In this document: positions 24,642-63,746 of the stretch, in pieces
Layout: the number at the start of each line of letters is the position of its first letter
Position numbering within the stretch: position 1 is the first letter of the stretch
Source of the DNA: Chloroflexota bacterium
GTDB taxonomy: Bacteria; Chloroflexota; UBA11872; UBA12225
Length of the DNA stretch: 64,000 nucleotides
Direction: 5' to 3'
Assembly: GCA_030447525.1 (NCBI GenBank)
Contig: JAUJOR010000001.1
Location: 299,466-363,465, forward strand
Made by a program: the position numbers and the translations under genes
Notes under the pieces: generated by a model
What the model was told of the DNA's origin: nothing
What the model saw: only the letters and a program-made list of their open reading frames with translations
Databases searched by the model: none

Positions 24642-24659
24642 CCTGCGACCGGGAGTTGC

Positions 24660-24973: not shown

Positions 24974-25549
24974 ATGTGGCCGGCCCTGGAGGCGATAGAC
25001 GCAATGGCTCCGACTGCCTTGCTGCAGTCCCTGGCGGCCGCCGCGGTGCCCTACGACATCCGCCGGCACGACCCGGCGCGCCACGCGCGACACCTTGCGG
25101 CCATCTGGGGCATCCCCCTGCCCGAGGCCGGACGGGCAACGCTGTTCGATGCCGGCGGGGCGCCGGTGCTTGTCCTCGTCCCTGCCGACCGCAAGGTGTC
25201 GGCGCCCCGACTGCGCAGCGTTCTCGGGGTCACAGACCTGCGAGTGCTGCGCGGCGATCGCGGGGTGGGTCGCACCGGCTGGCGCGGCCTGCCCGGAGAG
25301 CCGGGGGTCCTGCCCGCCGTGCCCCGCCTGTACGGGGCGCGCTGCCTGGTAGAGGAGCTCGTCCTGAACCGAGAACGCCTGGTGGTCTCGCTGGAAGCGG
25401 GTCGGTCGGTGGCCCTGCTCCCCGCCGACTACGTCCGGGTAGTAGGGGCGGCGACGGCTCGTTTCGCGGGTGGGACGAGGCTCCTGCCTGAAGGGGGCAT
25501 GATCACCGAAGTGACGTTGGTGGGCCGGGAAGGATTCGAACCTCCGTAG
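24974..25549 (+). CDS. YbaK/ProX-like aminoacyl-tRNA deacylase domain protein; its 3' end overlaps the tRNA-Tyr gene
   Basis: A YbaK-like pattern is seen (PVLVLVPADRKVSAPRLRSVLGV..., GVGRTGWRGLPGEPGVLP). The last approximately 10 codons (GREGFEPP) are a translation of the tRNA T-arm/acceptor on the opposite strand. Confidence 0.45.
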   Translation: MWPALEAIDAMAPTALLQSLAAAAVPYDIRRHDPARHARHLAAIWGIPLPEAGRATLFDAGGAPVLVLVPADRKVSAPRLRSVLGVTDLRVLRGDRGVGRTGWRGLPGEPGVLPAVPRLYGARCLVEELVLNRERLVVSLEAGRSVALLPADYVRVVGAATARFAGGTRLLPEGGMITEVTLVGREGFEPP

Positions 25550-25605
25550 GGCGTCAGCCCGTCAGATTTACAGTCTGATGCAATTGACCGCTCTGCCACC
25601 GACCC
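25518..25605 (-). tRNA. tRNA-Tyr (anticodon GTA) with a long variable arm and an encoded CCA end
   Basis: I folded it by hand. The acceptor is GGGTCGG/CCGGCCC. The D-arm is GCAG-AGCGGTCAA-TTGC. The anticodon stem TCAGA/TCTGA carries the loop CTGTAAA. The variable arm is GGGCTGACGCCC. The T-arm is GGAGG-TTCGAAT-CCTTC. The discriminator is A, followed by CCA. Confidence 0.85.
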
Positions 25606-35254: not shown

Positions 35255-35296
35255 CTATCAGGGTCACCCTATCAGGGTCACCCTATCAGGGTCACC
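35255..35296 (+). repeat. Tandem repeat, 3 x 14 bp (CTATCAGGGTCACC), each unit containing the near-palindrome GGGTCACCC
   Basis: It is read directly, in the convergent intergenic between the speB stop (35233) and the csp stop (35321). Confidence 0.85.
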
Positions 35297-35320
35297 CCCA
35301 GGCGGAGCGCTTGGGCAAGG

Positions 35321-40443: not shown

Positions 40444-40884
40444 CTACGAGGTCCCGGAGTGCAGCGGATTCTCCCAGCGCAGGTCAGAGAACCGGGCGAA
40501 GTCGCCGTCGGTGGAGCAGAGGACGAGGCCGTGCTCGATGGCCAGTGCTGCAAGGTGGGTATCTGGTACCAGGTTCGCGCCCGCGCCCTGGCGCCGAAAC
40601 AGCAGGTCCAGGGTGGCGCGGTGGCGGTCGGTCGGCTGCGGGACCCACACGGGCGGGCAGTCGAGCCACTCCTCCACCTGGCCCCAGGCCCCGGCGACGG
40701 GCTGGGGTCGCTCGAAGACGCGCGGGTTGGATACCAGGCGCACGAACGCCAGGAGGCTGGGCCAGGGCAGCCCTACCGGTGCCACCCCGTTCAGCCGCGC
40801 GTCGAGCCAGGCCCGCGCGGCGGGGTGCTGCGGGACCGTGGTGACATGCGCGTAGACCAACAGGTTTGCATCCACCAGGATCAC
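40444..40884 (-). CDS. vapC: PIN-domain ribonuclease toxin VapC
   Basis: The GTG start overlaps the vapB TGA in a GTGA arrangement. The N-terminus is (M)ILVDANLLVYAHV, and the PIN acidic residues fall in the D5, ...DTHLAALAIEHGLVLCSTDGDFARF pattern. Confidence 0.75.
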   Translation of the reverse strand: MILVDANLLVYAHVTTVPQHPAARAWLDARLNGVAPVGLPWPSLLAFVRLVSNPRVFERPQPVAGAWGQVEEWLDCPPVWVPQPTDRHRATLDLLFRRQGAGANLVPDTHLAALAIEHGLVLCSTDGDFARFSDLRWENPLHSGTS

Positions 40885-41129
40885 CGGAAGGTCTCCCCTT
40901 CCGCGGCGGCCAGAGCCGCCGCGACGTCGTCCAGGCTGCCGACGAGGCAACGGCCGAGCGATACGGTAGCGGTGCGGTAGGGTCTCCTTGGTCGCGCCGG
41001 CGCCATCATCTGCTGCAGCCCGTAGCGCAGGGCCTCGTTCACCGCCTGCTTCAAGCTGAGGCCACGGCCCTCGCGGACGCGATCGAGGAGGGCCGCCACG
41101 TCGTCGTCGAGCGTCAGCGTCGTTCTCAC
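40881..41129 (-). CDS. vapB: VapB-family antitoxin (ribbon-helix-helix / DUF2191-like)
   Basis: It is 82 aa (MRTTLTLDDDVAALLDRVREGRGLSLKQAVNEALR...) with a GTG start. It lies immediately upstream of and translationally coupled to vapC. Confidence 0.7.
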   Translation of the reverse strand: MRTTLTLDDDVAALLDRVREGRGLSLKQAVNEALRYGLQQMMAPARPRRPYRTATVSLGRCLVGSLDDVAAALAAAEGETFR

Positions 41130-41451: not shown

Positions 41452-43148
41452 CGGGGCCTGTTGCCAAAGTCGGGTATGGTGGTCAGGAGGAGCACGGTGC
41501 GGGGTACGCGGGCGCCCCGTGCACGCGACGGGAACGGCCGCTGGCCCGACCGGAGCTCGAACCGGGGACAGGCCCGCTTGAGAAGGGGGGGAGGGCCCAA
41601 CGCCGCACCCCCATGGCCGGGCTGGGGCGCGCCGTTGGGCCAGCTTCTTGACGTCGTACGCGATGGCGCTGCCCAGCGCCTGGATCAGCACCTTGTCTCG
41701 CCCCCGACACTGCGCCCGCCGCAGCCCGTGACGGTCCTTCAGTTCGGCGTTGGCCGTCTCGACCCAGTACGCGCGGGCGCGCCGGCTGCGCTTGGCGGGT
41801 GGCGTGCGGAGATAGGCGACGACTCGGTCGCGCAGTCCCCCATCGTCCGGGCGCACGAGGGTGCGGGCGGCCGCCGGGTCGCAGCACTGCGCCTTGACCG
41901 GGCACGCCCCGCAGACCTTCGGCCGCCCGCGGTAGATCAGGCCACCGGCCGCCCCGGCAGTGCGCGAGGAGCCCTGGCGGGTGAGGAGCCTGCCCGGTGG
42001 GACACCGATAGCGATTAGCGATCGGCGCGAACTCGTACACGAAGCGGTCGGCAGAGTAGTCACCCCGGTCGCTCATGGTGCTGTGGGGCGGGATGCTCGC
42101 CCGGATGCCCTGCTGCTCCAGCGCCACGTAGTTGGCGTAGGTCCCGTACTTGGTATCCGCCACCACTTCGGCCACCGTACGCCCGGTCGTGCCTCGATGC
42201 TCCTTGAGCAGCCGGTCCAGCAGGTGCTCGTCGGCAACCTCGCCCGGAGTCACGTCCAGCGCGGTGATGAGACGCGCCCGCCCGCCGTCCACGCCGACGT
42301 GCGCCTTGTAATAGAAGGCGTAGGGGACCCCTCGCGCTTGACCAGCCCCGCGTCGGGATCGGTGCGACTGGTCACCAAGGCGTTCACCGGCCCCTGGTCC
42401 CCGTTGGGCACGTCCTCCGGACCGGCCACGTGCAGCGACGGGCGCGCCGCCGCGCCCGCCGTGAGGCCACCGGCCGAGTCCGGCGCCGGCTGCTCCCCCT
42501 CGCCGGGAGGGGCCGCTGGCGGCGTGGGATCGGAGACGGGATCTCCTGCCACACCGTCGCGACGTACCCGGCCGCGCTCGGCAGCTGAGTGAGCAGCGCC
42601 TGCGCGCCGGCCGACCCAAGACTGGCATTGGCCTTGACCAGCGTGCTGTCCACGTAGAGGACGTCGCCCCGCACCAGGCCGGCCCGCTCGCACTGCCGCA
42701 CCACCTCGGTGAAAGCCGCCTGGTACACGGGCAGGCCGAAGCGCGCCCGCGCCTTGGACAGCATCGAGTGGTCCGGCGGCGTCTCGTCGAGGTCGTACCC
42801 CAAGAACCAGCGGAAGGCCAGGTGCAGGCGCGCCTCCTCGGCCAGCCGCCGCTCCGACGTGATGCCGTAGAGGTACCCGAGCAGCATCAGCTTGAACAGC
42901 ACCACCGGATCGACCCCCGGCCGGCCGGTGTGGCTGTAGAACCGCGCCGTCAGCCGCGCACAAAGCTGAGGTCGAGCGTCCCCGATGCGCGCAGCAAGTG
43001 GTCGCTCGGGACCTGCGCTTCTAGCGAGAACTCGTAGAAGCGCTTCGGCGTGAATTCCTTACGGCCCAACATCGTGCCCCACCTCGAACAGGGGAGCCAC
43101 CATCCTACTCAGACCTCGGCCGGTCCGGCCAGAGTTTGGCAACAGGCC
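41452..43148 (-). mobile_element. IS1182/IS5-family insertion sequence (1697 bp) with terminal inverted repeats GGCCTGTTGCCAAA / GGCCTGTTTGCCAAA and flanking 6-bp direct repeats CCCCGG
   Basis: The inverted repeats lie at 41452-41465 and 43134-43148. The target-site duplications lie at 41446-41451 and 43149-43154. Excising the element precisely restores a continuous dprA reading frame. Confidence 0.75.
41470..43072 (-). pseudogene. IS1182/IS5-family DDE transposase inactivated by frameshifts (three reading-frame segments)
   Basis: The N-terminus MLGRKEFTPKRFYEFSLEAQVPSDHLLRASGTLDLSFVRG is followed by a stop then a shift. It continues in another frame as RLTARFYSHTGRPGVDPVVLFKLMLLGYLYGITSERRLAEE (DUF772 / InsH N-terminal domain). 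The middle segment, in a second frame, is YKAHVGVDGGRARLITALDVTPGEVADEHLL. The C-terminal segment, in a third frame, is CGACPVKAQCC...AYWVETANAELKDRHGLRRAQCRGRDKVLIQALGSAIAYDVKKL. There is a 1-nt deletion at CGCGGCTGACG, where CGCCGGCTGACG is expected. Confidence 0.7.
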
Positions 43149-44250
43149 CCCCGGAGTTGGCGCGGCCCGCTTCCGGCGCCTCCTGGCCCGCTTCGGCACG
43201 CTGGCCCAGGCCTGGGGGGCCAGCCCGGGGCAGCTGGCGCTGGCGGGGCTCGACCGGCGGACGCTGGAGACCTTGACCGCCCTGCGCCGCCGGCTCGATC
43301 CGGCGCAGGAGCTGGAGCGAGCCCGCCGCTACGGCGCCGAGGTGCTCACCTGGGGGGATGCCCATTACCCCCGGCGGCTGGCCGCCATCCCTGACCCCCC
43401 GCCGGTGCTCTTCCTGCGCGGAACGCTCCTCCCGGGAGATGAGCGGGCCCTGGCCGTGGTAGGGACGCGCCGCCCGACGTACTATGGGCGCGACGTTGCC
43501 GAGCGCCTCTCGGCCGCCGTTGCCGCTGCCGGGTTGACCATCGTCAGCGGGCTGGCCAAGGGGGTAGACACGCACGCCCACCGCGGGGCCCTCAGCGCCG
43601 GCGGGCGGACGATCGCCGTCCTGGGCCACGGCCTGCAGACGGTCTACCCGCCGGAGAACCGCCGCCTGGCCGAGGCCGTGGCCGAGCGCGGGGCACTCTT
43701 GACGGAATACGCCCCCGGCGTTGGCCCGGCCGCGGAGAACTTCCCGCCCCGCAACCGGATCATCTCCGGTCTCGCCGCCGGCGTGCTGATCGTCGAGGCC
43801 GGCGAGCACTCCGGGGCCTTGATCACCAGCCGGTACGCCGCCGAGCAGGGGCGCGACGTCTTCGCCGTCCCCGGCCCGATCAGCTCCTTGGCCAGCCGGG
43901 GCTGCCATCGGTTGATCCAGGACGGGGCCAAGCTGGTCACCGGCGCCGCCGACGTCCTCGAGGAGATCGAGCCCCACTCGGAGCGGGCGGCCCCCCGGCA
44001 GATGGTCCTCGACCTCTCACCGGGGGCCGGCCCCGGCCCGATCGACGGGGCCGGGGGGGAGGGGGCATCGACTCCACAGGAAGATGGGCTCGTCCGGCTG
44101 CTGGCCGAGGTGGGCCAGCCGGCCCACGTCGACCAGCTGGCCCGCCGAATGGCGGTACCGGTGCAGGAGATCAGCGGGACGCTGGCCTGCCTGGAAGTGC
44201 AGGGGCGCGTGCGCCACGTCGGCGGGATGCGCTACAACATTTCCGGGTAA
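43149..44250 (+). pseudogene. dprA: dprA 3' portion (DNA-processing protein A, Rossmann-like DprA domain plus C-terminal DML1-like domain), displaced from its start codon and promoter by the IS
   Basis: The motifs ...PGVGAARFRRLLARFG..., VVGTRRPTYYGRDVAERLSAAVAAAGLTIVSGLAKGVDTHAHRGAL and VLIVEAGEHSGALITSRYAAEQGRDVFAVPG are present. The ORF track shows only an internal TTG at 43273. Confidence 0.7.
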
Positions 44251-46765: not shown

Positions 46766-47431
46766 TTACGTGTTGGGGGTGCCCGGAGGCTCGGCCTCTA
46801 GACCCCCCGGGGTGAGGCCGGCCGGTGTTGGAGGCTCGCCCACGGGTTCGAGCGTGCCTGCAGTGACGACGTGGGCCTGGATGGCCCCTTGCATCGCCAT
46901 CGTCTCCTGGGCGGCACGGGCCTCGCCGGCTGCGCCGACACGGACGGCGACGATCGTGTCGCCCTGGTCGAGGCGCAAGGCGTAGCGCATCGCCAGGTCG
47001 TGAGGCAGGCCCCGAGTGCGCTGCACGAGCGCGCCGGCGGTGGCCCCAAGCGCGGCCCCCACCAGCACTTCCAGGGCCCTGACCATGCCACTGGGGACGA
47101 GATCGCGTACGGCCAGCGGGGCCAGCGGGGCCAGCGGGTCGGCCCCCATTTCCGGGAGTAGCTGAGGCACCAGAAAGACGGCCAGGGCGGTGAGCAGGCC
47201 ACCGCCGATGGCGCCTATCAAAGCGGAGACGCTGATGCGCTCGGTGCGATTCACCAGACGGGCCGGCTCTCCCACCGGCAGCACGGGGACGCGTCCCGCG
47301 AGGAGGAGGCGCCCCCCACCGGCGCGGCCCACGGCGGAGATTGCCTCCGGCGTGAGACCGTCATCGAGCAAGGCGCGCGTCGCCTGCTCGGCCTCACTCA
47401 GTGTGGTGAAGGCCCCGATGACTAACGGCAA
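46766..47431 (-). CDS. General-stress-protein YflT-like (DUF1269-type) membrane protein with two YflT-like repeats
   Basis: The first repeat is MPLVIGAFTTLSEAEQATRALLDDGLTPEAISAV. It has central TM helices and a second similar module (DTIVAVRVGAAGEARAAQETMAMQGA). An in-frame (GCCAGCGGG)3 repeat encodes LAPLAPLA. Confidence 0.5.
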   Translation of the reverse strand: MPLVIGAFTTLSEAEQATRALLDDGLTPEAISAVGRAGGGRLLLAGRVPVLPVGEPARLVNRTERISVSALIGAIGGGLLTALAVFLVPQLLPEMGADPLAPLAPLAVRDLVPSGMVRALEVLVGAALGATAGALVQRTRGLPHDLAMRYALRLDQGDTIVAVRVGAAGEARAAQETMAMQGAIQAHVVTAGTLEPVGEPPTPAGLTPGGLEAEPPGTPNT

Positions 47432-51718: not shown

Positions 51719-52732
51719 ATGCGCGCCGTGCTGCCCCATCTCGCCGCCAGACCGTTTCCCGCGCTGCGTCGCGGCGTCCTGGAGACGCTCCAGGTCAACC
51801 TGGGGTACCGCTGTAACTTGCAGTGCGTCCACTGCCACGTGAATGCCGGCCCCCGACGCATGGAGATGATGGGGCGGGAGACGGCCGAGCAGGTGATCGC
51901 CTACCTGCGCCGGGCAGGGATTAGGACGCTGGATCTGACCGGCGGTGCCCCGGAGCTCAACCCGCACTTTCGCTCCCTCGTGGAGAGGGCCCGTGCCCTT
52001 GGCGTGCGCGTGATTGACCGCTGCAACCTCACCGTGCTGTGGGAGCCGGGCCAGGAAGACCTGGCGGCGTTCCTCGCCGCCAACGGCGTGGAGGTGGTGG
52101 CCTCCCTCCCCTGCTACCTGGAGGAGAACGTCGACCAGCAGCGCGGGCGGGGTGTGTTCGAAGGGAGCGTCCAGGGATTGCTCCGCCTGAATGCGCTGGG
52201 CTATGGGCGGCCCGGCTCGGGCCTCATCCTGGACCTGGTGTACAACCCCATCGAGCCGCAGCTCCCGCCGCCACAGGCGGAGCTGGAGCAGGACTACCAC
52301 GACGAGCTGGAGCGGCGCTTCGGGATCGTATTCAACCGCCTCTACACGCTGGCCAACATGCCCATCCAGCGCTTTGGGAGCCTGTTGCTCTCTACGGGTC
52401 GCTTCGACGAGTACATGGCCCTGCTCCAGGGAGCGCATCGGGACGAGAACCTGGATACCGTGATGTGCCGCTCGCTGATGAGCGTGGACTGGCAGGGCCA
52501 CGTCTACGATTGTGACTTCAACCAGATGCTCGGACTCCCCCTGACCCTCGAGGGGGCGGACGAGGAAGCAGGGGGCGGGCACGGGAGTGGCCGGAGCGGC
52601 CGGAGCGGTCGGCGGGTGCACCTCACCGAGCTGTCGAGTGCCCAGCTGGAAGGCAACGTCATCGCCGTCGCGGGGCACTGCTACGGCTGCACCGCCGGGC
52701 AGGGGAGCAGCTGCAGCGGCGCGCTGGCCTAG
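51719..52732 (+). CDS. Radical SAM / Cys-rich domain protein of the ArsS-like (TIGR04167-type) family
   Basis: The N-terminal cluster LQVNLGYRCNLQCVHCHVNAGPRRMEMM is the CxxxCxHC variant typical of this family. A C-terminal Cys-rich segment ends AGHCYGCTAGQGSSCSGALA. Confidence 0.75.
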   Translation: MRAVLPHLAARPFPALRRGVLETLQVNLGYRCNLQCVHCHVNAGPRRMEMMGRETAEQVIAYLRRAGIRTLDLTGGAPELNPHFRSLVERARALGVRVIDRCNLTVLWEPGQEDLAAFLAANGVEVVASLPCYLEENVDQQRGRGVFEGSVQGLLRLNALGYGRPGSGLILDLVYNPIEPQLPPPQAELEQDYHDELERRFGIVFNRLYTLANMPIQRFGSLLLSTGRFDEYMALLQGAHRDENLDTVMCRSLMSVDWQGHVYDCDFNQMLGLPLTLEGADEEAGGGHGSGRSGRSGRRVHLTELSSAQLEGNVIAVAGHCYGCTAGQGSSCSGALA

Positions 52733-52739
52733 GGTGCCC

Positions 52740-53438
52740 CTAGGCGAACCCCAGGCGGCGCTCTTTCAGGGAGATGTACCCTTCTCGCCCCGGGCCGGGC
52801 CGCCCGACGACGACGTGGTCGAGCACCTCGATGTCCAGCAGCCGTCCGGCGTCGGCGGCGTCTGTGGTGATGCGGACGTCCTCGGGGGAGGGAGTGGGAT
52901 CGCCGCTGGGGTGATTGTGGACGACGATCACGGCGGCGGCGTTCTCCCGGATGGCGTCACGGAACAGCTCGGCCACGCGGACGGTGCTGGCGTTCAGCGT
53001 TCCGCGGTACACCTCGCGCACGGCCATGACGTGGTTCTTGGTGTTGAGCAGGACGACCCGCAGGTGCTCTCAATCCAGCAGGGTCATCTCGGACGCGACG
53101 AGATGGTAGACGTCACGCGGGGAATGGATCTCCGTGCGCTGCGCCGGCTCTAGGGCCGTCAGGCGGCGCCCCAGCTCGAGGGCGGCTTGCACCTCCGCCG
53201 CCTTGACCGGGCCGACGCCGGCCAGGCCTTTCAGCTCTACGGTGGAAGCCTTGGCCAGGCCGGCCAGGCCGGCCAGGCCGCCCAGGCGGGCCAGCGCCCG
53301 GTTGGCCACGTCCAGGGCGCTTTCCCGGGACCGGCCCGAGCTGCCGGTGCGCCAGATGATGGCCAGCAGCTCGCCGTTGCTGAGGTGCTCCGGCCCGTAG
53401 CGGGCGAGGCGCTCCCGCGGGCGCTCGCTGCTGGGCAT
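52740..53438 (-). pseudogene. radC: radC (JAB/MPN-domain DNA-repair-associated protein) interrupted by an in-frame TGA at 53058-53060
   Basis: The N-terminal part ends ...HSPRDVYHLVASEMTLLD-TGA. It continues in the same frame as [26 protein letters not shown]...[15 protein letters not shown], which is the JAMM motif. I verified frame continuity by hand. Confidence 0.7.
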
Positions 53439-53679
53439 GTCCCGGATCAAGAGGTACTCCCGACCGGTGGCCGCCGGGGCGCCGCTCGGCCCTGCCCCGT
53501 TCACTGAGCGGGCATCTGGTCCGGGGCCGGTGGCCTGCCCGGACGTTTCAGTAGTGGTGTTCGGGCTCGTCCCTCTGGGGACTGCGGGGGCTCTGGGGGC
53601 TCTGGGGGCTGCTCGCCCCGGTTTGGGAGCAGACCGGCGGGAGCTGGCGCGCAGCACGGCGGAGGACGTCGCTCGGGGC

Positions 53680-55480
53680 ATGTCAGTCGGTATCGTACCC
53701 GGACGGCGGCCGGCGTACCATCAGCCTCCGTCCCTCCACCCCGCTCTGAACAGGCGGCCCGGCGGCGAGCCGGGAGGGGAGGGGGCACCGAGAGCGGCCC
53801 TCTACCGGCACCGCTTCCGCCTCCTGGCCGGGCTGACGCTCCTGGCCTTGCTCCTGCGCATCTGGGCCCTCGACCAGTCGCCCCTCGGCCTGGATCCGGG
53901 CGAAGCCTCCATTGGCTACAACGCCTACTCCGTCTTGCGCACCGGCCGAGACGAGTACGGCTAGCCGTGGCCCCTGACCTTCCGGGCTTTTGGCGAGTAC
54001 AAGCGCCCGGCCTACGTCTACGCCGCCATCCCAGGTATCGCCCTCTTGGGCCCGACGCCGGCCGGCGTCCGCATCGCGGCCGCCGTCGCCGGGACGCTGT
54101 CGGTTCCGGCGCTCTACGCCGTGGCCACGCTCCTGCTGCGGAGCTGGCGGGGGGCGCTGGTGGCGGCGACCATGCTCGCCCTCTCGCCCTGGCACCTCCA
54201 GTTCACCCGGGCCGCTCGAGAGGCCAGCCTGCTCGTCCTGGCCATCCTCTTGCTCGCCGGGGCCTTGCTGCGGGCGTGGCACGCGCCTCCCGCCGAGCGC
54301 CCCGGTCGCCCGGCCGGCTCCAACCTCCTGTACGTCGGCGCCGCCCTGGCCTTTCTCCTGGCGGTGTACAGCTACCCCGGTGGCCTCCTCTTCACCCCGC
54401 TGCTCGTGCTCGTCCTGGTATGGGCCTACGGGAGCCGGGTGCGCCGCCGGCCGCGAGCGTGGCTGGGAGCCGCCCTGGCCATTGCCGCCCTGGGTCTGGT
54501 GCCCCTGGTGGTACAGCTCACCGATGGCCGGGCGCGGGCGGGCCTCAGCCAGGCCTCGATCTTCAACTTCCCGGCGGTGCGTCAGCTGGCCGAAGCCCGC
54601 GTCGCACGCGACCGTCGGGAAGGTGCCCCGCGGCTGCTCAACAGCTCGATGATGGTGGCCCTGCGCCAGGCGGTCAACGCCTATCTGACTCACTTCGACC
54701 CGACCTATCTCTTCACCCGCGGGGACGCCGAGTGGCGCCACCACTCCAGCGACGCCGGCCAGCTGTACTTGTGGGACGTGCCCCTCCTGGGGATTGGCCT
54801 GGTGAGGGTCGCCCGAGGCTGGCGACGCCCGGCGGCGATGCGCGCCATCGGGGCCTGGCTGCTGATCGGCCCGTTGCCGGTGGCGTTCGCCGAGAACGCC
54901 CCCCACGCCGTGCGGTCGATCGTCATGCTCCCGGCGTGGTACCTCCTGGCGGCCGCCGGTGTGTCCCCCCCCTGTGGCGCTGGCTCCGGCGCCGGGGCTA
55001 TGAGCGAGACTGGTTGCTGCTTCTCGTCCTGAGCCTGGCCTTCTCTATACCTTCTACCGCTACTACCCCATTGAGCACGCCCCATCCTGGCAAAGCGGGA
55101 TGCTGGAGGGCTTTCGCGCGGCGCAGGCGGAGGTAGACGCCGGACGCTACCGGCGCGTCGTCATCCCCCAGGAGATGTCTCCTTCGTACATCTACGCCCT
55201 CTATGCCAATGGCTATGACCCGCACTCCTACCTGACCCAGGGCGGCAGTGTCGTCGACCCCAGCGGCCCGTTCTTCCCTGCACCCGGCCCGCTGCAGTTT
55301 CGCCCCTACGAGGTGCGGGTGGTGGACTGGCGCACCGAGCCGCGGCTCCCGGAGGTGCTCTACGTCTTGGAAGCCTCGAACCGTCTACCCCCGGGGCTGG
55401 AGGTGGTCAAGGTGGTCAAGGTGGTCAAGGGCGTGGGGGGCCGGGATAGGCTGCAGCTCGTGGCCGCCCCGGGCGGGTGA
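53680..55480 (+). pseudogene. PMT/ArnT-like (GT39 family) membrane glycosyltransferase carrying an in-frame TAG at 53962-53964 and at least two frameshifts (a C8 tract at about 54964-54971, and near 55080)
   Basis: The first segment is ...LYRHRFRLLAGLTLLALLLRIWALDQSPLGLDPGEASIGYNAYSVLRTGRDEYG. A TAG stop follows, where PMT_2 proteins normally have a basic residue. The next segment is PWPLTFRAFGEYKRPAYVYAAIPGIALLGPTPAGVRIAAAVAGTLSV.... The C-terminal domain continues in two other frames after CCCCCCCC. Confidence 0.6.
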
Positions 55481-55491
55481 TACGTCCCAGG

Positions 55492-55707
55492 CTAAGACCT
55501 CAGGGCGCCCAGCAGCAGCTCGGCGCTGCAAACGCTGAGATAGGCGACGCCGAAGACGGCGACCGCCGTCCCCAGGAGCACCCTCAGGGCGCCGGCGTCG
55601 AGCAGCCCGGGGTCGTCCGTGACCAGGAGGCTGACCACGGCCAGGGTGATGGCCAGGGCGCAGGTCACGCGCCCGGTGAAGGTGCGGGCGATGTGGAGCC
55701 GGCTCAC
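55492..55707 (-). CDS. Possible small two-TM membrane protein (71 aa); unsupported
   Basis: It is a hydrophobic ORF between the GT39 pseudogene and murT with no homology signal. Confidence 0.2.
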   Translation of the reverse strand: MSRLHIARTFTGRVTCALAITLAVVSLLVTDDPGLLDAGALRVLLGTAVAVFGVAYLSVCSAELLLGALRS

Positions 55708-55905
55708 GTCTCTACGTACGCCCCGGCATGTTGGTGCGGTGCCCCCTTCGAAGCCCTAGGGCTTCGCGCTCCACGAACGTCCCGGCCGGTACATAGGGGA
55801 CGATGATACGGGCCGGGTGGAGGCTGTTACCATCCCACCAGGGGCTTGGCACGGCGCGGACGCCGTCGTTGAACGAGGGAAGGGACAGGGAGAGCGGCAG
55901 GGGGA

Positions 55906-57492
55906 ATGGCACCAAGCGGACGGCGAGACCTGCGCGTCGGCATGGCCTCCCTGGCGGCACGGGCGGCGGCGACGGCATCGCGGGTGTTGAAGCGGGGGGG
56001 CGGGACGGCCCTGCCCGGCCTGATCGCCGAGCGTGTCGCGCCGGGGCTCCTGGCCCACCTGGCCGGCCAACTCCCGGGCGGCGTGGTGGTAGTCACCGGG
56101 ACGAACGGGAAGACCACCACCAGCCACATGCTGGCAGCTATCTTCCACCGGGCGGGGCTGTCTCCGGTGCGTAACGCCTCCGGCTCCAACCTCTCGCGCG
56201 GGATCGCGGCGGCCCTGGCCGTGCACGCCGACTGGACGGGGCGCCTGCGTCTCCGGCCGGCCGCTCCGCCGGGTGGGGGCTCCCCAGGGGCCGGCCTCTC
56301 TGCGCAGCGAGACGCGAGGCACGGCGGAGCGGTGGGCCTCTTCGAGACCGACGAGGCGGCGTTCGCTCGTGTCGTGCCGGCGGTGCAGCCGGGCGTGGTG
56401 GTGGTCACGAACCTGTTCCGCGACCAGCTTGACCGCTACGGGGAGGTGGACACGGTGGCGGCGATCTGGCGCACTGCCCTCTCCGCCCCCGCCCGGGGCA
56501 GCACGCCGGGCACGCTCGTGCTCAACGTAGACGACCCCACGGTGGCCTCGTTAGCCCCGCCAGGGGACGAGGGGGCGCCAGTGCCGCCGGTCGGGGGCAC
56601 CGCGGGGGCCCTCTTGTTTGGCATCGAGGATGCCCGCTGGGGGCACCCGGGCCCGGAGCACGCGGCCGATGCCAAGGTCTGTCCTCGATGCGGCGCGCGC
56701 CTGGAGTACCCGGTGTGCTTTTACGGGCATCTGGGTCACTACCACTGCCCCAACGGGCACCGCCGCCCGGCGCCGGCGGTCAGCGCGACGCGCCTGGAGC
56801 CGCACGGCTTTGACGGCACCGATCTGACCTTGACCACGCCGGCCGGGGAGCTCGCCTTCCGTCTCCCCCTGCCCGGCCTCTACAACGTCTACAATGCCCT
56901 GGCCGCCGCCGCCGGGGCGCTCGCCACCGGCGTCCCGCTCTCCGCCGTGCGTGAGGGCCTGGCCGGCTTTACAGCCGCCTTTGGTCGCCTGGAGCGCGTC
57001 CAGGTGGGGGCGCACGTCGTCTACCTCGTCCTGGCCAAGAACCCTGTGGGGATGAATGAGGCCTTGCGCACGCTCTTCGCCGATGGCCGGCCAAAGCACC
57101 TCTTGATGGCCCTGAACGACCTGGACGCCGACGGGCGGGACGTATCCTGGATCTGGGATGCCGACTTCGAGCACGTCGCCGGCCAGGCGGCCAGCCTGAC
57201 CGTCTCCGGCCGGCGCGCCGAGGAGCTGGCCATGCGCCTCAAGTATGCCGGGGTGGCCGGCGGGACGGCGCTGGAGATCGAGCCCGACCTGCGCCGGGCC
57301 CTGGATCGGGCTCTGGCCATGATGCCCGCCGGGGAGACGCTCTACGCCGTGCTGACCTACACCGCCATGTTGGGGCTGCGCCACGTCCTCGCCGAGCGCG
57401 GCCACCTGATGGCCTACTGGGACGAGGGGGCCGACGTTTCAGGTCTCAATTCCCAGGTCTCACGTCTCACGTCAGGTATGGAACGACCATGA
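55906..57492 (+). CDS. murT: Lipid II isoglutaminyl synthase, Mur-ligase-like subunit MurT
   Basis: The Mur ligase central domain is VVVTGTNGKTTTSHML. The MurT-specific 4-Cys ribbon is CPRCGARLEY...YGHLGHYHCPNGH. A DUF1727-type C-terminus is present. It is paired with gatD downstream. Confidence 0.85.
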   Translation: MAPSGRRDLRVGMASLAARAAATASRVLKRGGGTALPGLIAERVAPGLLAHLAGQLPGGVVVVTGTNGKTTTSHMLAAIFHRAGLSPVRNASGSNLSRGIAAALAVHADWTGRLRLRPAAPPGGGSPGAGLSAQRDARHGGAVGLFETDEAAFARVVPAVQPGVVVVTNLFRDQLDRYGEVDTVAAIWRTALSAPARGSTPGTLVLNVDDPTVASLAPPGDEGAPVPPVGGTAGALLFGIEDARWGHPGPEHAADAKVCPRCGARLEYPVCFYGHLGHYHCPNGHRRPAPAVSATRLEPHGFDGTDLTLTTPAGELAFRLPLPGLYNVYNALAAAAGALATGVPLSAVREGLAGFTAAFGRLERVQVGAHVVYLVLAKNPVGMNEALRTLFADGRPKHLLMALNDLDADGRDVSWIWDADFEHVAGQAASLTVSGRRAEELAMRLKYAGVAGGTALEIEPDLRRALDRALAMMPAGETLYAVLTYTAMLGLRHVLAERGHLMAYWDEGADVSGLNSQVSRLTSGMERP

Positions 57493-58382
57493 AACTAGTG
57501 CTCGGCCACCTCTATGGCGATCTCCTGAACCTGTACGCCGATCGGGGAAACATCATCGCCCTGCAACAGCGCTGCGCCTGGCGTGGCGTCGACCTGGAGG
57601 TGCGCCAGATCGGGATCGGCGAGGCCGTGCGGCCGGACGCCCTCGATCTCCTCTTCATGGGGGGCGGGCAGGACGGCGACCAGCGCCTCATGGCCGACGA
57701 CCTTTTCCGGCTCAAGGCCGACGCCCTGCGCGGGGCGCTCGTTGACGGCCTGCCTATGCTCGCCGTCTGTGGGGGGTATCAGCTCTTTGGGGAGTACTAC
57801 CAGCCGGCGGAGGGCCCGCCCCTCCCTGGGCTGGGGCTGTTCGACCTGCACACGGTGCACCCCGGGCCCCGCGTCCGGCGCTGCATCGGGAACGTCGTGG
57901 TGGAGTGGTTGACGGCGGGGACCGTAGACCAGTCGCACGTCTCGAGCCGCGAGTCGCACGTCTCAGCTGCCGAGACGGGACCGGGGGCGAGACTTGTGAC
58001 TCGGGCGCCCGCCCCGGCACCCCTTGGGCGCGGCGCGACCCCGCCGGTGCGGCGCACCACGCTCGTCGGCTTCGAGAACCATGGGGGGCGCACCTACCTC
58101 GGTCCAGGGGCGCGGCCCCTGGGGCGCGTCATCAGCGGGCACGGCAACAATGCGCGGGACGGCACGGAAGGGGCCGTCGTCCACCAGGCGTACGGCACGT
58201 ACCTCCACGGGTCGCTGCTGCCGAAGAACCCTCACCTGGCCGACCACTTACTGACGCTGGCCCTGCGGCGGCGCCACCCGGGGGCGACGCTGGCCCCGCT
58301 GGACGATACCGCGGAGTGGCGGGCCCACGAGGCCATAGTGAAGCGATATGGCCGGCGGGGGGCGGTGCGTCGAGCGGCCTGA
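57489..58382 (+). CDS. gatD: Lipid II isoglutaminyl synthase glutaminase subunit GatD (CobB/CobQ-like GATase) with an approximately 55-aa insert
   Basis: The N-terminus is MKLVLGHLYGDLLNLYADRGN, with LAVCGGYQLFGEYY (catalytic Cys) and HGSLLPKNPHLAD (His). The start overlaps the murT stop (ATGA). Confidence 0.8.
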   Translation: MKLVLGHLYGDLLNLYADRGNIIALQQRCAWRGVDLEVRQIGIGEAVRPDALDLLFMGGGQDGDQRLMADDLFRLKADALRGALVDGLPMLAVCGGYQLFGEYYQPAEGPPLPGLGLFDLHTVHPGPRVRRCIGNVVVEWLTAGTVDQSHVSSRESHVSAAETGPGARLVTRAPAPAPLGRGATPPVRRTTLVGFENHGGRTYLGPGARPLGRVISGHGNNARDGTEGAVVHQAYGTYLHGSLLPKNPHLADHLLTLALRRRHPGATLAPLDDTAEWRAHEAIVKRYGRRGAVRRAA

Positions 58383-58397
58383 AGGGCCTGAGACCTC

Positions 58398-60170
58398 ATG
58401 AACCTGGACGCCCTGGCACTTGGCGCCGTGTGCGCCGAACTGCGCCGCACTATCCTGGGTGGACGGGTGCAGCACGTGCATCTCCCGGACGAGCATGGCC
58501 TGGCGATGGAGCTCTACGCCGCGGGTCAGGCGCGCTGGCTCTATGCCTCGGCCCACCCACAGCGCGCCCGGCTGCACCTGGTCACGTCCCGGCCGCCGCG
58601 CCCCTCGGACGACGTGACGCCAGTCCTGCTCATGTTACGGAAATACGTGCACGAGGGCCGGCTGGACGGCGTGCGGCAGCCGGCCCTCGAGCGGATCGTC
58701 CATCTGCAGTTCAGCAAGCGTGCGCCGTCCGGCGCGATCTGGCGCACCACGCTGGTGGTCGAGCTGATGGGACGACAAAGCAACCTCATCCTCCTGGACG
58801 AGGATGGCACGGTGATGGACGCAACGAAGCGCGTCGGGCCGCAGCAGAGCCGCAGCCGGGTGGTGCTACCGCAGCGGCGCTACGATCCGCCAGCGATGCC
58901 AGAGCGCCTCGATCCCCGCCGGGTACAGGAGGGTGACCTGGCTCTGCGTGGGGCCACGGCCGCGCCGGAGCAGCCCCTGCGCCAGCTCCTCGTAGGTGCC
59001 GTGCAGGCCTGCAGCCCTCTGCTGGCCCGGGAGGTAGTCTACGGCGTCCACGGCGACGCCGGAGCCACGGTGGGGCGCGACGGCTGGGAGGGGCTGGCCG
59101 CAGGGCTGCGGGAGGTGTGGGGGGCGTCCGAAGAGGGACGTTGGGCGCCGACGGCGGCCTTCGAGGGGGAGCGCCTCGTCGCCTACGCCGCCTACCCGTT
59201 GCGGAGCTTCCCGGACGTCCGTCCGGCGCCGAGCATCAGCCGGGCCATCGAGCGCTGGTTCGAGGAAGCGGCGCCGGCGGCGGGGCCGGAAGGCCCCCTC
59301 CAGGTGGGTACCCTGCAGGCGCGCAAGGCCCCCCTGCGCCAGGCGCTGGAAGGGGCCCGTGACCGGCTGCGGGCCAAGCGCTACTCCCTGCAGCAGGGGC
59401 TGATCGACGAGGCGGAGGTGATCCGGCTGCGCCGCGCCGGGGAGCACCTCCTGGCCTTTGGCCGAGAGCTGGCGCCTGGTACAGATCGCTTCAGCCTGCC
59501 GGATGACTCCACGACGCTGGCGGCCGACCCGACGCTCAGCGCGGTAGAGAACGCCCAGCGGTATTTCTCCCGCTACGCCAAGGCCAAGGGGGCCGCGCGG
59601 GAGGTACCGGCGCTCCTCGCCGCCACGGAGCACGAGCTGCGCTACCTGGACGAGGCGCTGACCCACCTCGACCTGGCCGAAGGGCCGGACGAGATCGCCG
59701 GCCTGCGGGCGGAGTGGGGGGAGCTGGGGTACCTCGGGGCCGGCGGACGCCCAAAATCCAGGGGCGGGGCTACCGGCAAGACCAGGCGACGCCAGCCGGA
59801 CCGGCACCAGGGCCGAGGGGCGGCGCCGTACCGCCGCCTGGTGATCGACGGCTTCGAGGTGCTGGTGGGGCGGAGCGGGAAAGGGAACGACGCCCTCCTG
59901 TCGCGCGACGGGCACCCCGCCGACCTCTGGCTGCACGCCCGGGGCCTACCCGGAGGGCACGTCCTCATTCGCACCGCCGGGCGCCCCGTACCGGACCCGG
60001 TTCTACGCCAGGCGGCAGGGATCGCCGCCGGTCAGAGCCAGGGCCGCACCGCCCCCACGGTCGCCGTCGACTACACCCTGCGCAAGTACGTCGACCGGAT
60101 CAAGGGGGCCCCACCGGGGTTGGTCACCTATAGGGGGGAGCGGACGATCCACGTCCCGCCAGCTGAGTAG
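58398..60170 (+). CDS. Rqc2/RqcH-family (NFACT) ribosome quality control protein; fibronectin-binding-protein-A N-terminal domain plus a DUF814/NFACT-R C-terminus
   Basis: The NFACT-N region is LELMGRQSNLILLDEDGTV. The NFACT-R region is VIDGFEVLVGRSGKGNDALL...HARGLPGGHVLIRTAGRPVPDPVLRQAAGIAA. Confidence 0.8.
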   Translation: MNLDALALGAVCAELRRTILGGRVQHVHLPDEHGLAMELYAAGQARWLYASAHPQRARLHLVTSRPPRPSDDVTPVLLMLRKYVHEGRLDGVRQPALERIVHLQFSKRAPSGAIWRTTLVVELMGRQSNLILLDEDGTVMDATKRVGPQQSRSRVVLPQRRYDPPAMPERLDPRRVQEGDLALRGATAAPEQPLRQLLVGAVQACSPLLAREVVYGVHGDAGATVGRDGWEGLAAGLREVWGASEEGRWAPTAAFEGERLVAYAAYPLRSFPDVRPAPSISRAIERWFEEAAPAAGPEGPLQVGTLQARKAPLRQALEGARDRLRAKRYSLQQGLIDEAEVIRLRRAGEHLLAFGRELAPGTDRFSLPDDSTTLAADPTLSAVENAQRYFSRYAKAKGAAREVPALLAATEHELRYLDEALTHLDLAEGPDEIAGLRAEWGELGYLGAGGRPKSRGGATGKTRRRQPDRHQGRGAAPYRRLVIDGFEVLVGRSGKGNDALLSRDGHPADLWLHARGLPGGHVLIRTAGRPVPDPVLRQAAGIAAGQSQGRTAPTVAVDYTLRKYVDRIKGAPPGLVTYRGERTIHVPPAE

Positions 60171-60234
60171 GAGCGCGTCGGACGTCCCCGACCCGCCAGG
60201 AGAGCGCTGGCGCCGAGCGCAGGGCGCCCGGCGC

Positions 60235-61059
60235 TCAAGGACGGCGGGCGACGAAGATGGCCCGGGGCGACGTGCGGGTAAGCGGGTCGCCCCGGTAGGT
60301 GCCATATGTCGCCTCCACGGCGTACCCCTCCCGCTCCAGCAGGGCCCGCACCTGATCCGGCTCCGCCAGGCGCAAGCGGTAGGTAAACTGGGCCAGCCGG
60401 CTGGCCGGGGCGTCGCTGAGAGGTTCGGCGGCGTAGTAGCGCACCTCCGAGACGCCCTGCCGGCGTGCGGGATCGTAGGTGTAGTCCTTGATGCGCAGTA
60501 CGGTCTGGCCCTGCCAGGGCAGGGCGAGGCGCTGGGTGATTCCGGTCTCGTTCTGCCGGTCGTCGTCGTTCGGTGGGAACACGTCCAGGACGAAGCGCCC
60601 TTCCGGGGCCAGGTGGCGGGCGACGGCGCGCAGGCAGCTCGCCTGGCCCGCCTCGTTGTCCAGGAGCCAGAAGGAGTTGTAGGCGATAAAGACGAGGCCG
60701 AACTGGCGCCCAGGGAGATCAAAGGCGGCCATGTCCGCTTCCACCCAGTCCAGTCGGGCGGCCACGGACGGGGGGAGGCGAGCGCAGCGCGCCCGGGCGC
60801 GTTCCAGCATCCCGGGGGCGCGCTCCAGGCCGGTGACCCGGTGTCCCTTACGCGCCAGGGCGATGGCAACACGGCCGCTCCCGGCGGCGAGCTCGAGGAC
60901 GGCGCCGCCGGAGGTGCCGGCCAGCTGGTGCCAGAAGCCGAGCTCTGCCCCCCGGCAGGCGGGATGCTCCAGGTCATACAGGCGGGCGATCGTCCCCCAG
61001 TCTTCCTGCGAGGGAGGGTCGCTGCTCTGGTAGACTCGGCGCCCAGCGCCCGGGCGCAT
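60235..61059 (-). CDS. Class I SAM-dependent methyltransferase
   Basis: Motif I is VLELAAGSGRVAIALARKGHRVTGLE, and the post-I acidic residue and motif II (LVFIAYNSF) are present. The start is uncertain (61059 or 61116). Confidence 0.7.
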   Translation of the reverse strand: MRPGAGRRVYQSSDPPSQEDWGTIARLYDLEHPACRGAELGFWHQLAGTSGGAVLELAAGSGRVAIALARKGHRVTGLERAPGMLERARARCARLPPSVAARLDWVEADMAAFDLPGRQFGLVFIAYNSFWLLDNEAGQASCLRAVARHLAPEGRFVLDVFPPNDDDRQNETGITQRLALPWQGQTVLRIKDYTYDPARRQGVSEVRYYAAEPLSDAPASRLAQFTYRLRLAEPDQVRALLEREGYAVEATYGTYRGDPLTRTSPRAIFVARRP

Positions 61060-61117
61060 GGCCAGGCGCACCGTACGTTCTGACGCGCTGTTCTTGGAGG
61101 AGGACACAAAGGACATG

Positions 61118-62539
61118 GCCGACGTCCGACCTTTCCCTGGGCTGCGCTTCGATCCGGCGCAGGTCGACCTGGGCGCCGCCGTGTGTCCGCCGTTTGACGT
61201 CATCTCTCCGGCAGAGCAGAGAGCGTATCACGCGCGCGATCCGCACAACATCGTCCGCGTGGAGCTGGGAATGGGGCCGGCCGATCCCGACGCCCCGGGG
61301 AATCGGTACGCCGCGGCCGCCGCCGCCCTGGCGGCCTGGCGCCGGGAGGGGACGTTGCGCCCGGACGCCACGCCGGCGTTCTACCTCTACGAGCATGCCT
61401 TCCAGCACCAGCACCGCACGGTCGTGCGGCGCGGGCTGTTCGTGGCCGGACGTCTCCATGAGCCATCCGCCACGGGCGTCCTGCCCCACGAGGACACGCG
61501 TAAGGGGCCGATCACGGACCGCCTGGCCCTGCTCCGCGCCACGGCGACGAACGTCAGCCCCCTGTGGCTGCTGTACGAGGACGCCGACAAATCGGTGGCC
61601 CGATCCCTGGAGAGGGGCTGGGACGCGCCGGTGGCCGCCGTGGCTGAGGGCGAGGGGGAGCGGCACAGCCTGCGAGTCGTCGACGATCCGCGGACTCTGC
61701 GTGCCGTGGTGGCCGCCTTTGCCGCGCGTCCGCTGTACATTGCCGACGGCCACCATCGCTACAAGACGGCGCAGGTCTACCGTGACGAGCGCAGGGGGAC
61801 AAGCTCAGGGGGCCGGAACGGCCAGCCGGACGGCCAGCCGGACGCCGGCTACGAGTTCGCCCTCATGCTCCTGGTGCCACTGGACGATCCCGGGCTGATG
61901 GTGCTGCCGACACACCGGCTGGTGCGCCACTCCGGGCGACCCCTGGAGGACGTGCGCCGGGCCCTGGCCCAGTGGCTGACCCTGGAGCCGTTACCCCCGC
62001 CCGGTGGGGGAACCGACGCGACCGCGACCGCCCTGACGCGCGTCCTGGACGCCGCCGGGGTGGCGGGGCACGCCTTTGTGCTCCTCGAGCGCGAGGGGGC
62101 TTGGCTGCTCAGGTTGCGCGAAGACGTAGACTGGCGTAGCCACCTCCCGGCAGGACACGGGGCAGCCTGGCAAGGACTGGACGTGGCCGTGCTCGACGCC
62201 CTGGCCATCCGTGGCGCCTGCGGCATCCGCGCCGAGGCGGAATCGGCTGGCGCCGGGGAGGCGAGTCACACCCCGCCCTCGCCGGATCTGACTCCCCGTC
62301 TCCCCACAGCGGGCTCGCCCGACCGCCTGGCCTACGTTTCCCAGGCCGTCGACGCGGTGGAGGCCATCCGCCGCGGCGAGGCCGACCAGGCCTACCTCCT
62401 CAACCCCACGCGTGTGGAGCAGGTCTGCGCCGTCGCCGCCGCCGGCGACCGCATGCCCCCCAAGTCTACGTTCTTCTATCCGAAGCCGGTCACGGGCCTG
62501 GTGCTGCACTCCCTGGAGGGCACGCGTCCGGCGCCGTGA
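61118..62539 (+). CDS. DUF1015-domain protein
   Basis: The conserved N-terminus is MADVRPFPGLRFDP...VCPPFDVIS, with ADGHHRY in the core, and the C-terminus is STFFYPKPVTGLVLHSLE. The ATG at 61118 is preceded by GGAGGAGG. Confidence 0.75.
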   Translation, partial: ADVRPFPGLRFDPAQVDLGAAVCPPFDVISPAEQRAYHARDPHNIVRVELGMGPADPDAPGNRYAAAAAALAAWRREGTLRPDATPAFYLYEHAFQHQHRTVVRRGLFVAGRLHEPSATGVLPHEDTRKGPITDRLALLRATATNVSPLWLLYEDADKSVARSLERGWDAPVAAVAEGEGERHSLRVVDDPRTLRAVVAAFAARPLYIADGHHRYKTAQVYRDERRGTSSGGRNGQPDGQPDAGYEFALMLLVPLDDPGLMVLPTHRLVRHSGRPLEDVRRALAQWLTLEPLPPPGGGTDATATALTRVLDAAGVAGHAFVLLEREGAWLLRLREDVDWRSHLPAGHGAAWQGLDVAVLDALAIRGACGIRAEAESAGAGEASHTPPSPDLTPRLPTAGSPDRLAYVSQAVDAVEAIRRGEADQAYLLNPTRVEQVCAVAAAGDRMPPKSTFFYPKPVTGLVLHSLEGTRPAP

Positions 62540-62756
62540 ACAAGTGGTCATGCCCCGCCGGTGGCTGGCAGGGCAGGAAACGTGGTGCGCCATCTTCACA
62601 GGAAACGTGGTGCGCTATCTTCACAGGAAGTGCCATGTCCGGGACGGACAGAGACGGCAAGGGAAATGGGGAGCGCGCCGGGACGATCGTCAGCTATGCT
62701 CGCAGGAACGTGACAGGAATCCGGCGCCGTCGGGAGACGGCTTGCAGAACGGGGCG

Positions 62757-63685: not shown

Positions 63686-63746
63686 CCCGCCCTGTGGGAC
63701 CCGCCCTGTGGGACCCGCCCTGTGGGACCCTCCCCGCAGGGCGGAC
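63686..63746 (-). repeat. Three direct 15-bp repeats (sense strand GTCCCACAGGGCGGG) plus an inverted partner (CCGCCCTGCGGG), directly upstream of the SD of the PyrD-like gene
   Basis: It is read directly in the sequence. On the mRNA-sense strand the 5' arm CCGCCCTGCGGG can pair with any of three downstream CCCACAGGGCGG copies. The sequence CUCCAGAGGGAGG overlaps the SD. Confidence 0.8.

Follow-up and report, generated by a model that had tools for sequence, protein, structure and literature searches.

Two divergently oriented neighbouring genes, radC and a glycosyltransferase gene of family GT39, are broken in the 64-kb stretch of DNA analysed here (hereafter the window; coordinates refer to it). 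The host is an uncultured Chloroflexota population of desert soil, and we consider both genes to be true pseudogenes of young evolutionary age in its dominant genotype, with a probability of roughly 0.86. RadC is interrupted by one in-frame stop, and the GT39 gene by a stop and two frameshifts; at all four sites the orthologues carry sense codons or are equal in length. The products that remain, a GT39 stub of 94 aa and a piece of RadC without the JAB domain, are non-functional. The locus and its neighbours comprise the following features:

51719-52732, plus strand: intact DUF3641/ArsS-like radical SAM gene (Pfam DUF3641, E 2e-51), convergent with radC
52740-53681, minus strand: radC pseudogene with UPF0758_N HhH domain and RadC JAB domain, identified by Pfam on the read-through translation and by identity to orthologues
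52878-52919, minus strand: intact JAMM motif downstream of the radC TGA, found by translation and identical in loci L002-L005
53070-53072, minus strand: in-frame TGA at radC codon 204 (tca on the plus strand), truncating RadC ahead of the JAB domain
53253-53294, minus strand: period-9 array, 4.7 copies of GGCCAGGCC, inside radC (TRF and alignment); not a lesion
53680-55480, plus strand: GT39/PMT_2 (GT-C fold) glycosyltransferase pseudogene with its ATG at 53680, divergent from radC
53962-53964, plus strand: in-frame TAG at GT39 codon 95, three codons past the conserved GRDEYG loop motif
54964-54972, plus strand: T plus C8 tract, 2 nt longer than in five orthologues, shifting the frame from mod 3 = 1 to mod 3 = 0
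55041-55046 (55043/55044), plus strand: 4-nt deletion, orthologue TTCTATCTCTAT to window TTCTCTAT, giving the second shift, to mod 3 = 2
55401-55430, plus strand: period-9 array, 3.3 copies of GTGGTCAAG, in the GT39 gene (TRF and alignment); not a lesion
55906-58382, plus strand: intact murT-gatD pair (Pfam), orthologous to genes of L004 and L014, omega 0.16-0.26

The longest reading frame of radC starts at 53681, and the conserved core begins with MPSSERP at about 53438. The translation on both sides of the TGA lies in a single frame. According to Pfam, the read-through protein contains the N-terminal HhH domain PF20582 (UPF0758_N; E 8.6e-22, residues 79-162) and the RadC JAB domain PF04002 (E 4.2e-39, residues 185-309), and the alignment of the latter spans the stop at codon 204. 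The C-terminal JAB/MPN domain retains the JAMM consensus HxHPxxxxxxSxxD. Read through in this way, the protein aligned end to end with intact orthologues (P0082/L002) at 92-93% amino acid identity. The window gene shares the two-domain architecture and the JAMM motif with the RadC/UPF0758 family (PF04002 plus PF20582; E. coli YicR, B. subtilis YsxA). Unlike members of that family, it has no uninterrupted frame, and the TGA lies upstream of the catalytic motif; what is left is therefore a remnant that no longer works. What RadC proteins do in the cell is itself an unsettled matter, on which a paper entitled 'RadC, a misleading name?' reportedly bears.

The codon at the position of the radC stop is CGC (Arg) in L002 and L003 and CAG (Gln) in L004 and L005. 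Across 120 homologues the residue was Gln in 91, Arg in 19, Ser in 4, Glu in 3 and Phe in 3, and Cys in none of the 120. Downstream of the TGA is a 95-aa ORF from which ~35 residues at the start of the JAB domain are missing; direct inspection showed no Shine-Dalgarno sequence upstream of this ORF.

The repaired translation of the GT39 gene scored 30.1 bits against Pfam PMT_2, above the gathering cut-off of 26.1 bits. Its identity was 78% to the intact 548-aa P0001, 78-79% to the orthologue at locus L013 and 70% to P0002, and its N-terminus, M-S-V-G-I-V-P, agrees with those of P0004-P0006. Within the first loop, the acidic DE motif (GRDEYG), presumably catalytic as in other GT-C enzymes, is conserved across the GT39 homologues. 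The window gene thus resembles the ArnT-/PMT-like, polyprenyl-phosphate-sugar-dependent GT39/PMT_2 enzymes in its PMT_2 domain, its multi-span membrane N-terminal half and its DE-containing first loop, and it shares a conserved C-terminal soluble domain with its Chloroflexota orthologues. Unlike these enzymes, it carries three disabling lesions (TAG, +2 nt and −4 nt) and has no uninterrupted frame.

The first of the three, the TAG, follows the loop motif directly in the translation, which reads TGRDEYG, the stop and then PWPLTFRAFGEYK. The codons at this position in five orthologues are CAG, CAG, CAC, GTC and ACG (Gln, Gln, His, Val and Thr). Among 60 homologues the residue is variable (Thr, Glu, Val, Ala, Gln, His and others) and never Cys. 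At the second lesion, the C8 run occupies 54965-54972 and is preceded by a T at 54964. Since the five orthologues have identical length here and the window has 2 nt more, the change is not simply from C9 to C8. The third lesion lies only ~75 nt from the second, and its exact place is ambiguous inside a short CT/TA repeat; here, too, all five orthologues are equal in length. With 2 nt removed, 4 nt restored and the stop read through, the GT39 protein aligned end to end with intact orthologues. Because both RadC and GT39 can be recovered in this way along their whole length, the pattern is more than chance.

Most elements of this locus had been noticed in a sequence-only reading, and several of them are refined here. 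That reading recognised the radC TGA and placed it at 53058-53060, 12 nt away from its true position, whereas its coordinates for the GT39 TAG after GRDEYG (53962-53964), its intact JAMM motif downstream of the radC stop and its spacing of ~900 bp between the stops (892 bp) were correct. The frameshift that it saw at the C8 tract is real, with the run at 54965-54972 and two extra nucleotides relative to orthologues; the second shift is real as well, although it is the 4-nt deletion at 55043/55044 and does not lie near 55080. The GC-rich repeat arrays to which it drew attention exist but cause no lesion. They are in-frame expansions by one unit, GGCCAGGCC adding GLA to RadC relative to its orthologues and GTGGTCAAG adding VVK to GT39 relative to L004; similar period-9 mini-arrays are scattered throughout the window (TRF).

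The closest homologues of both proteins all belong to uncultured Chloroflexota. Intact orthologous loci were available for RadC (L002 and L003, 92-93%), for GT39 (L013, 78-79%) and for both genes together (L004/L005 and L014). In L004/L005 and L014, radC and the GT39 gene are adjacent and divergent, in the same arrangement as in the window. The gene order GT1-radC-GT39-small ORF-murT-gatD-NFACT-methyltransferase-DUF1015 is kept, with all genes intact, in L004 and L014, so the block belongs to the core chromosome and not to a decaying accessory island. Of the earlier proposal of a decaying accessory region, the decay therefore stands and the accessory nature does not. The DUF3641/ArsS-like gene is a lineage-specific insertion, absent from the junction in L004, L014 and L002. 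In a scan of GTDB species genomes, relatives reached at most 56% identity, and none had an adjacent radC. When the ArsS-like and MurT proteins on either side were looked up by exact sequence, there was no match, probably because gene callers chose different starts.

The surroundings of the locus are otherwise intact, as had been supposed. The window has a GC content of 69.8%. A GC-phase frame plot was too noisy, GC1 also being high, and a trained codon log-odds ORF score was used instead. In the resulting codon-usage-trained ORF map, ~45 other genes had near full-length Pfam matches. They include purL/Q/C/B/D, guaA, ABC transporter genes, rsmA, pth, mfd, infA, polyamine genes, dprA, secDF, murT-gatD and the genes of an NFACT protein and a DUF1015 protein. 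Apart from radC and the GT39 gene, damage was seen in one gene alone, which encodes an IS1182/IS5-like transposase and is split over three frames (DUF772, DDE_Tnp_1 and DDE_Tnp_1_6). It sits in a ~1.7 kb element with 22-nt imperfect inverted ends. Several pairs or series of abutting ORFs in the same frame (13024/15148, 16093/16822, 21750/22524/24660, 27692/28430 and 35748/36582) were considered as further in-frame stops and rejected, each being composed of separate complete genes; the ORF pair 24920/25550 is spurious and overlies the tRNA-Tyr gene.

All four lesions are present in an assembled read consensus. Logan contig L001 (10,040 bp, run SRR24765285) is identical to window positions 52567-62606 at 100%, without gaps, and includes every lesion; the middle GT39 fragment is likewise on record from the Logan assembly of this run (P0008). 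For run SRR24765285, soil from the hyperarid Qaidam Basin was made into a PCR-free library and sequenced as 2x150 on Illumina NovaSeq; the study that lists the run assembled it with MEGAHIT (PMC12624003). The two assemblies share this one read set.

A real but polymorphic state of the lesions, in which the assembly is a mosaic of strains and some cells keep an intact radC and/or GT39 gene, is unlikely. Metagenome-assembled genomes (MAGs) are population consensuses, and a very recent inactivation would fit alleles that are not yet fixed; the Logan contig also ends near the locus, at 52567, although this end coincides with a 9-nt repeat array. Against a mixture, the two assemblers took an identical path with no break over the 2.7 kb, and the length of the source contig (623,666 bp) suggests low strain heterogeneity. 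Furthermore, a collection of 5.8 billion proteins contained no full-length protein above 92% identity to RadC or 78% to GT39, and two scans of JGI metagenomes in which the mutated base was left free recovered no allele of either stop site. The truncated radC and GT39 fragments were found in no other sample.

Sequencing or assembly error, with the true genes intact, had been listed as a candidate explanation by the sequence-only reading, and we consider it very improbable. The source is a metagenome assembly, one lesion falls at a homopolymer with short GC-rich repeats close by, and both assemblies come from the same run. However, two different assemblers agreed completely across 10 kb of PCR-free Illumina short reads, which makes an artefact unlikely. 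Neither substitutions, of which there are two here, nor a deletion of 4 nt, of which there is one, are typical error types. The window contains 21 G/C runs of at least 7 nt. Intact ORFs, including the 1,245-aa mfd, contain three further C8 tracts, and neither these nor the 17 other 7-nt runs are accompanied by a frameshift. Within the 64 kb, only the IS transposase gene is otherwise broken.

That the two genes are young pseudogenes is also consistent with the pattern of substitutions. Omega relative to the closest orthologue (NG86) was 0.06 for RadC and 0.22 for GT39, inside or below the range of 0.16-0.35 obtained for intact neighbours. Lineage-specific changes were polarised with two outgroups. 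For RadC, nonsynonymous changes on the window and relative branches numbered 9 and 3, and synonymous changes 18 and 20 (Fisher's test, p = 0.11); for GT39, the corresponding counts were 28 and 34, and 42 and 40 (p = 0.50). Neither omega nor the polarised counts showed a significant excess indicative of relaxed selection on the window lineage in either gene. Purifying selection thus appears to have acted until recently, and the inactivation is recent. We read the absence of relaxation in this sense, and not as evidence against pseudogene status. An apparent 8:1 excess of RadC amino acid changes on the window branch shrank to the above 9:3 (synonymous changes, 18:20) when each site was polarised on its own.

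It is slightly surprising that three disabling hits in GT39 are accompanied by no detectable excess of amino acid changes; the expected excess is ~5-15 with a sampling error of about ±6, so the result lies within small-number noise.

Most substitutions on the window branch are C>T and G>A, and the two nonsense changes belong to this class. Bacterial mutation is generally AT-biased, in agreement with nonsense changes from G:C to A:T. Loss of radC would most simply have required one nonsense substitution, a G:C-to-A:T transition that turned CGA (Arg) into TGA; this one-step path is only inferred, as the closest radC orthologue has CGC. The GT39 stop would have arisen in a single C-to-T step from CAG (Gln) to TAG, CAG being found directly in the closest orthologues. 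Replication slippage probably caused the 2-nt gain at the C-rich tract, and the 4-nt deletion fell in the short CT/TA repeat. Whichever GT39 lesion came first would have removed selection, after which the others could accumulate neutrally. The three lesions of GT39 would then represent one loss event followed by decay, and the locus two loss events instead of four. The lesions, the orthologue states and the presence of the lesions in the read consensus are observations, while the succession of events and the way in which each mutation arose are our reconstruction from them.

Disabling substitutions and short indels, intact orthologues and several hits per gene are likewise features of unitary bacterial pseudogenes, from which radC and the GT39 gene differ in nothing essential. 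As the sequence-only reading had expected under simple decay, the orthologues carry sense codons at both stop positions. What stands out is that two divergent neighbours are both broken among ~45 intact genes. With ~3 of ~50 window genes damaged, we estimate that chance alone would strike a neighbour of the first pseudogene in roughly 10% of cases, so their adjacency is not very unlikely. A non-coincidental co-loss could be imagined, either as a loss selected in this population of a hyperarid desert (for instance, because cells lacking a surface glycan escape phage, or because a regulatory unit common to both genes was given up) or as the local mark of C-to-T mutagenesis of the UV type, an idea suggested by the fact that both nonsense changes are C-to-T following a pyrimidine. 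We give such scenarios little credence.

Phase variation through the C-tract, also raised earlier, would make GT39 a contingency locus switched by tract length, and is rejected here as highly implausible. A poly-C tract coincides with the frameshift, as in the contingency loci of Neisseria, Haemophilus and Campylobacter, and L003 has a C7 tract at the same place. In contrast to those loci, the GT39 tract is internal, lying deep in the coding region away from the 5' end, and is not conserved, being merely C4 in L013, L014 and L004. Readings with C5 through C11 all stop at codon 95, the upstream TAG, and give no full-length frame; even when the TAG is ignored, they end at codons 441-486 of ~600. 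The frame is thus not restored at any of these lengths, and the locus has no ON state.

That both genes are functional and their stops recoded, with UGA decoded as selenocysteine or simply read through, UAG decoded as pyrrolysine, or the genetic code altered, can practically be dismissed. Recoding could not in any case repair the two GT39 frameshifts. UGA is generally known as the leakiest stop codon, and the DUF3641 radical SAM family of the adjoining gene includes selenoprotein members. Homologues nevertheless carry Gln or Arg in RadC and Thr, Glu, Val, Ala or Gln in GT39 at the stop positions, never Cys. The 73 nt from the radC UGA onward folded no better than shuffled sequences (z = −0.24). 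An Rfam search detected no SECIS element even at E values up to 10, the only match at the gathering threshold being one tRNA. Together with the lack of Cys among the 120 RadC homologues, these results bear out the earlier opinion that the TGA does not encode selenocysteine. No gene for tRNA-Sec or tRNA-Pyl and no pyl gene was present within the 64 kb, where tRNA-Tyr is the sole tRNA. The UAG is not conserved in orthologues, which have CAG, CAC, GTC or ACG. All three stop codons act as terminators of intact window genes (TGA in 17, TAG in 15 and TAA in 10), contrary to an alternative code.

Protein databases currently hold the two genes as five fragments, of 94, 328 and 126 aa for GT39 and of 144 and 95 aa for radC; in this MAG, both would be better flagged as pseudogenes. 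The locus also illustrates that stops and frameshifts clustered in a high-GC MAG can reflect true decay and not error, and that comparison with orthologues and a second assembly can address this question without the reads. Young pseudogenes of this well-known kind reflect ordinary gene decay and have little import beyond annotation. For the organism, their presence implies that neither RadC nor the GT39 glycosyltransferase is essential in its habitat.

On the assumption that the longest ORFs represent the true genes, radC and GT39 have divergent start codons that share bases within a CATG palindrome (53679-53682). A low-complexity N-terminal extension of 60-90 aa was also found in close RadC orthologues, where its presence is conserved and its sequence is not. 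The radC TGA (53070-53072) and the GT39 TAG (53962-53964) each reflect a C-to-T change immediately 3' of a pyrimidine (GAT/TGA and GGC/TAG, respectively). The source habitat is a hyperarid desert with high UV; linking this habitat to C-to-T changes after pyrimidines is speculation, with two events only.

Gene content at the junction between the glycosyltransferase gene GT1 and radC differs among the window and L002 and L004, the orthologous loci from related uncultured Chloroflexota. This junction is empty in L004 and is otherwise occupied as follows:

Window 51719-52732, DUF3641/ArsS-like radical SAM gene
L002 2311-2939, toxin-antitoxin pair (69-aa protein and PIN)

The junction looks like a small insertion hotspot within an otherwise syntenic block.

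Elsewhere in the window, an IS1182/IS5-like element (~41453-43150) is bounded by 22-nt imperfect terminal inverted repeats, and its transposase is split among three reading frames. It adjoins the following pair:

40444-41129, VapBC-like RHH and PIN pair

Comparison with L004 revealed neither the element nor the pair between the HAD hydrolase gene and dprA.

Two further genes were recorded:

22524-24659, minus strand, 711-aa ORF with strong coding signal
25518-25605, minus strand, tRNA-Tyr (GTA), the sole RNA gene detected within the window

Pfam gave no match for the 711-aa ORF, and high-scoring spurious ORFs overlie the tRNA gene.

Three perfect or near-perfect tandem repeats have periods not divisible by three:

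35255-35297, 14 nt, 3.1 copies
62574-62629, 25 nt, 2.2 copies
63686-63734, 14 nt, 3.5 copies

At least the first falls between called ORFs. Short in-frame arrays of period 9 or 18 are numerous within coding regions throughout the window, for example:

31277-31365
32961-32995
47111-47138
52584-52612
53253-53294, in radC
55401-55430, in GT39

Because the radC and GT39 arrays are each one unit longer than those of the orthologues, the comparison suggests that slippage-type expansion is active in the window's lineage.
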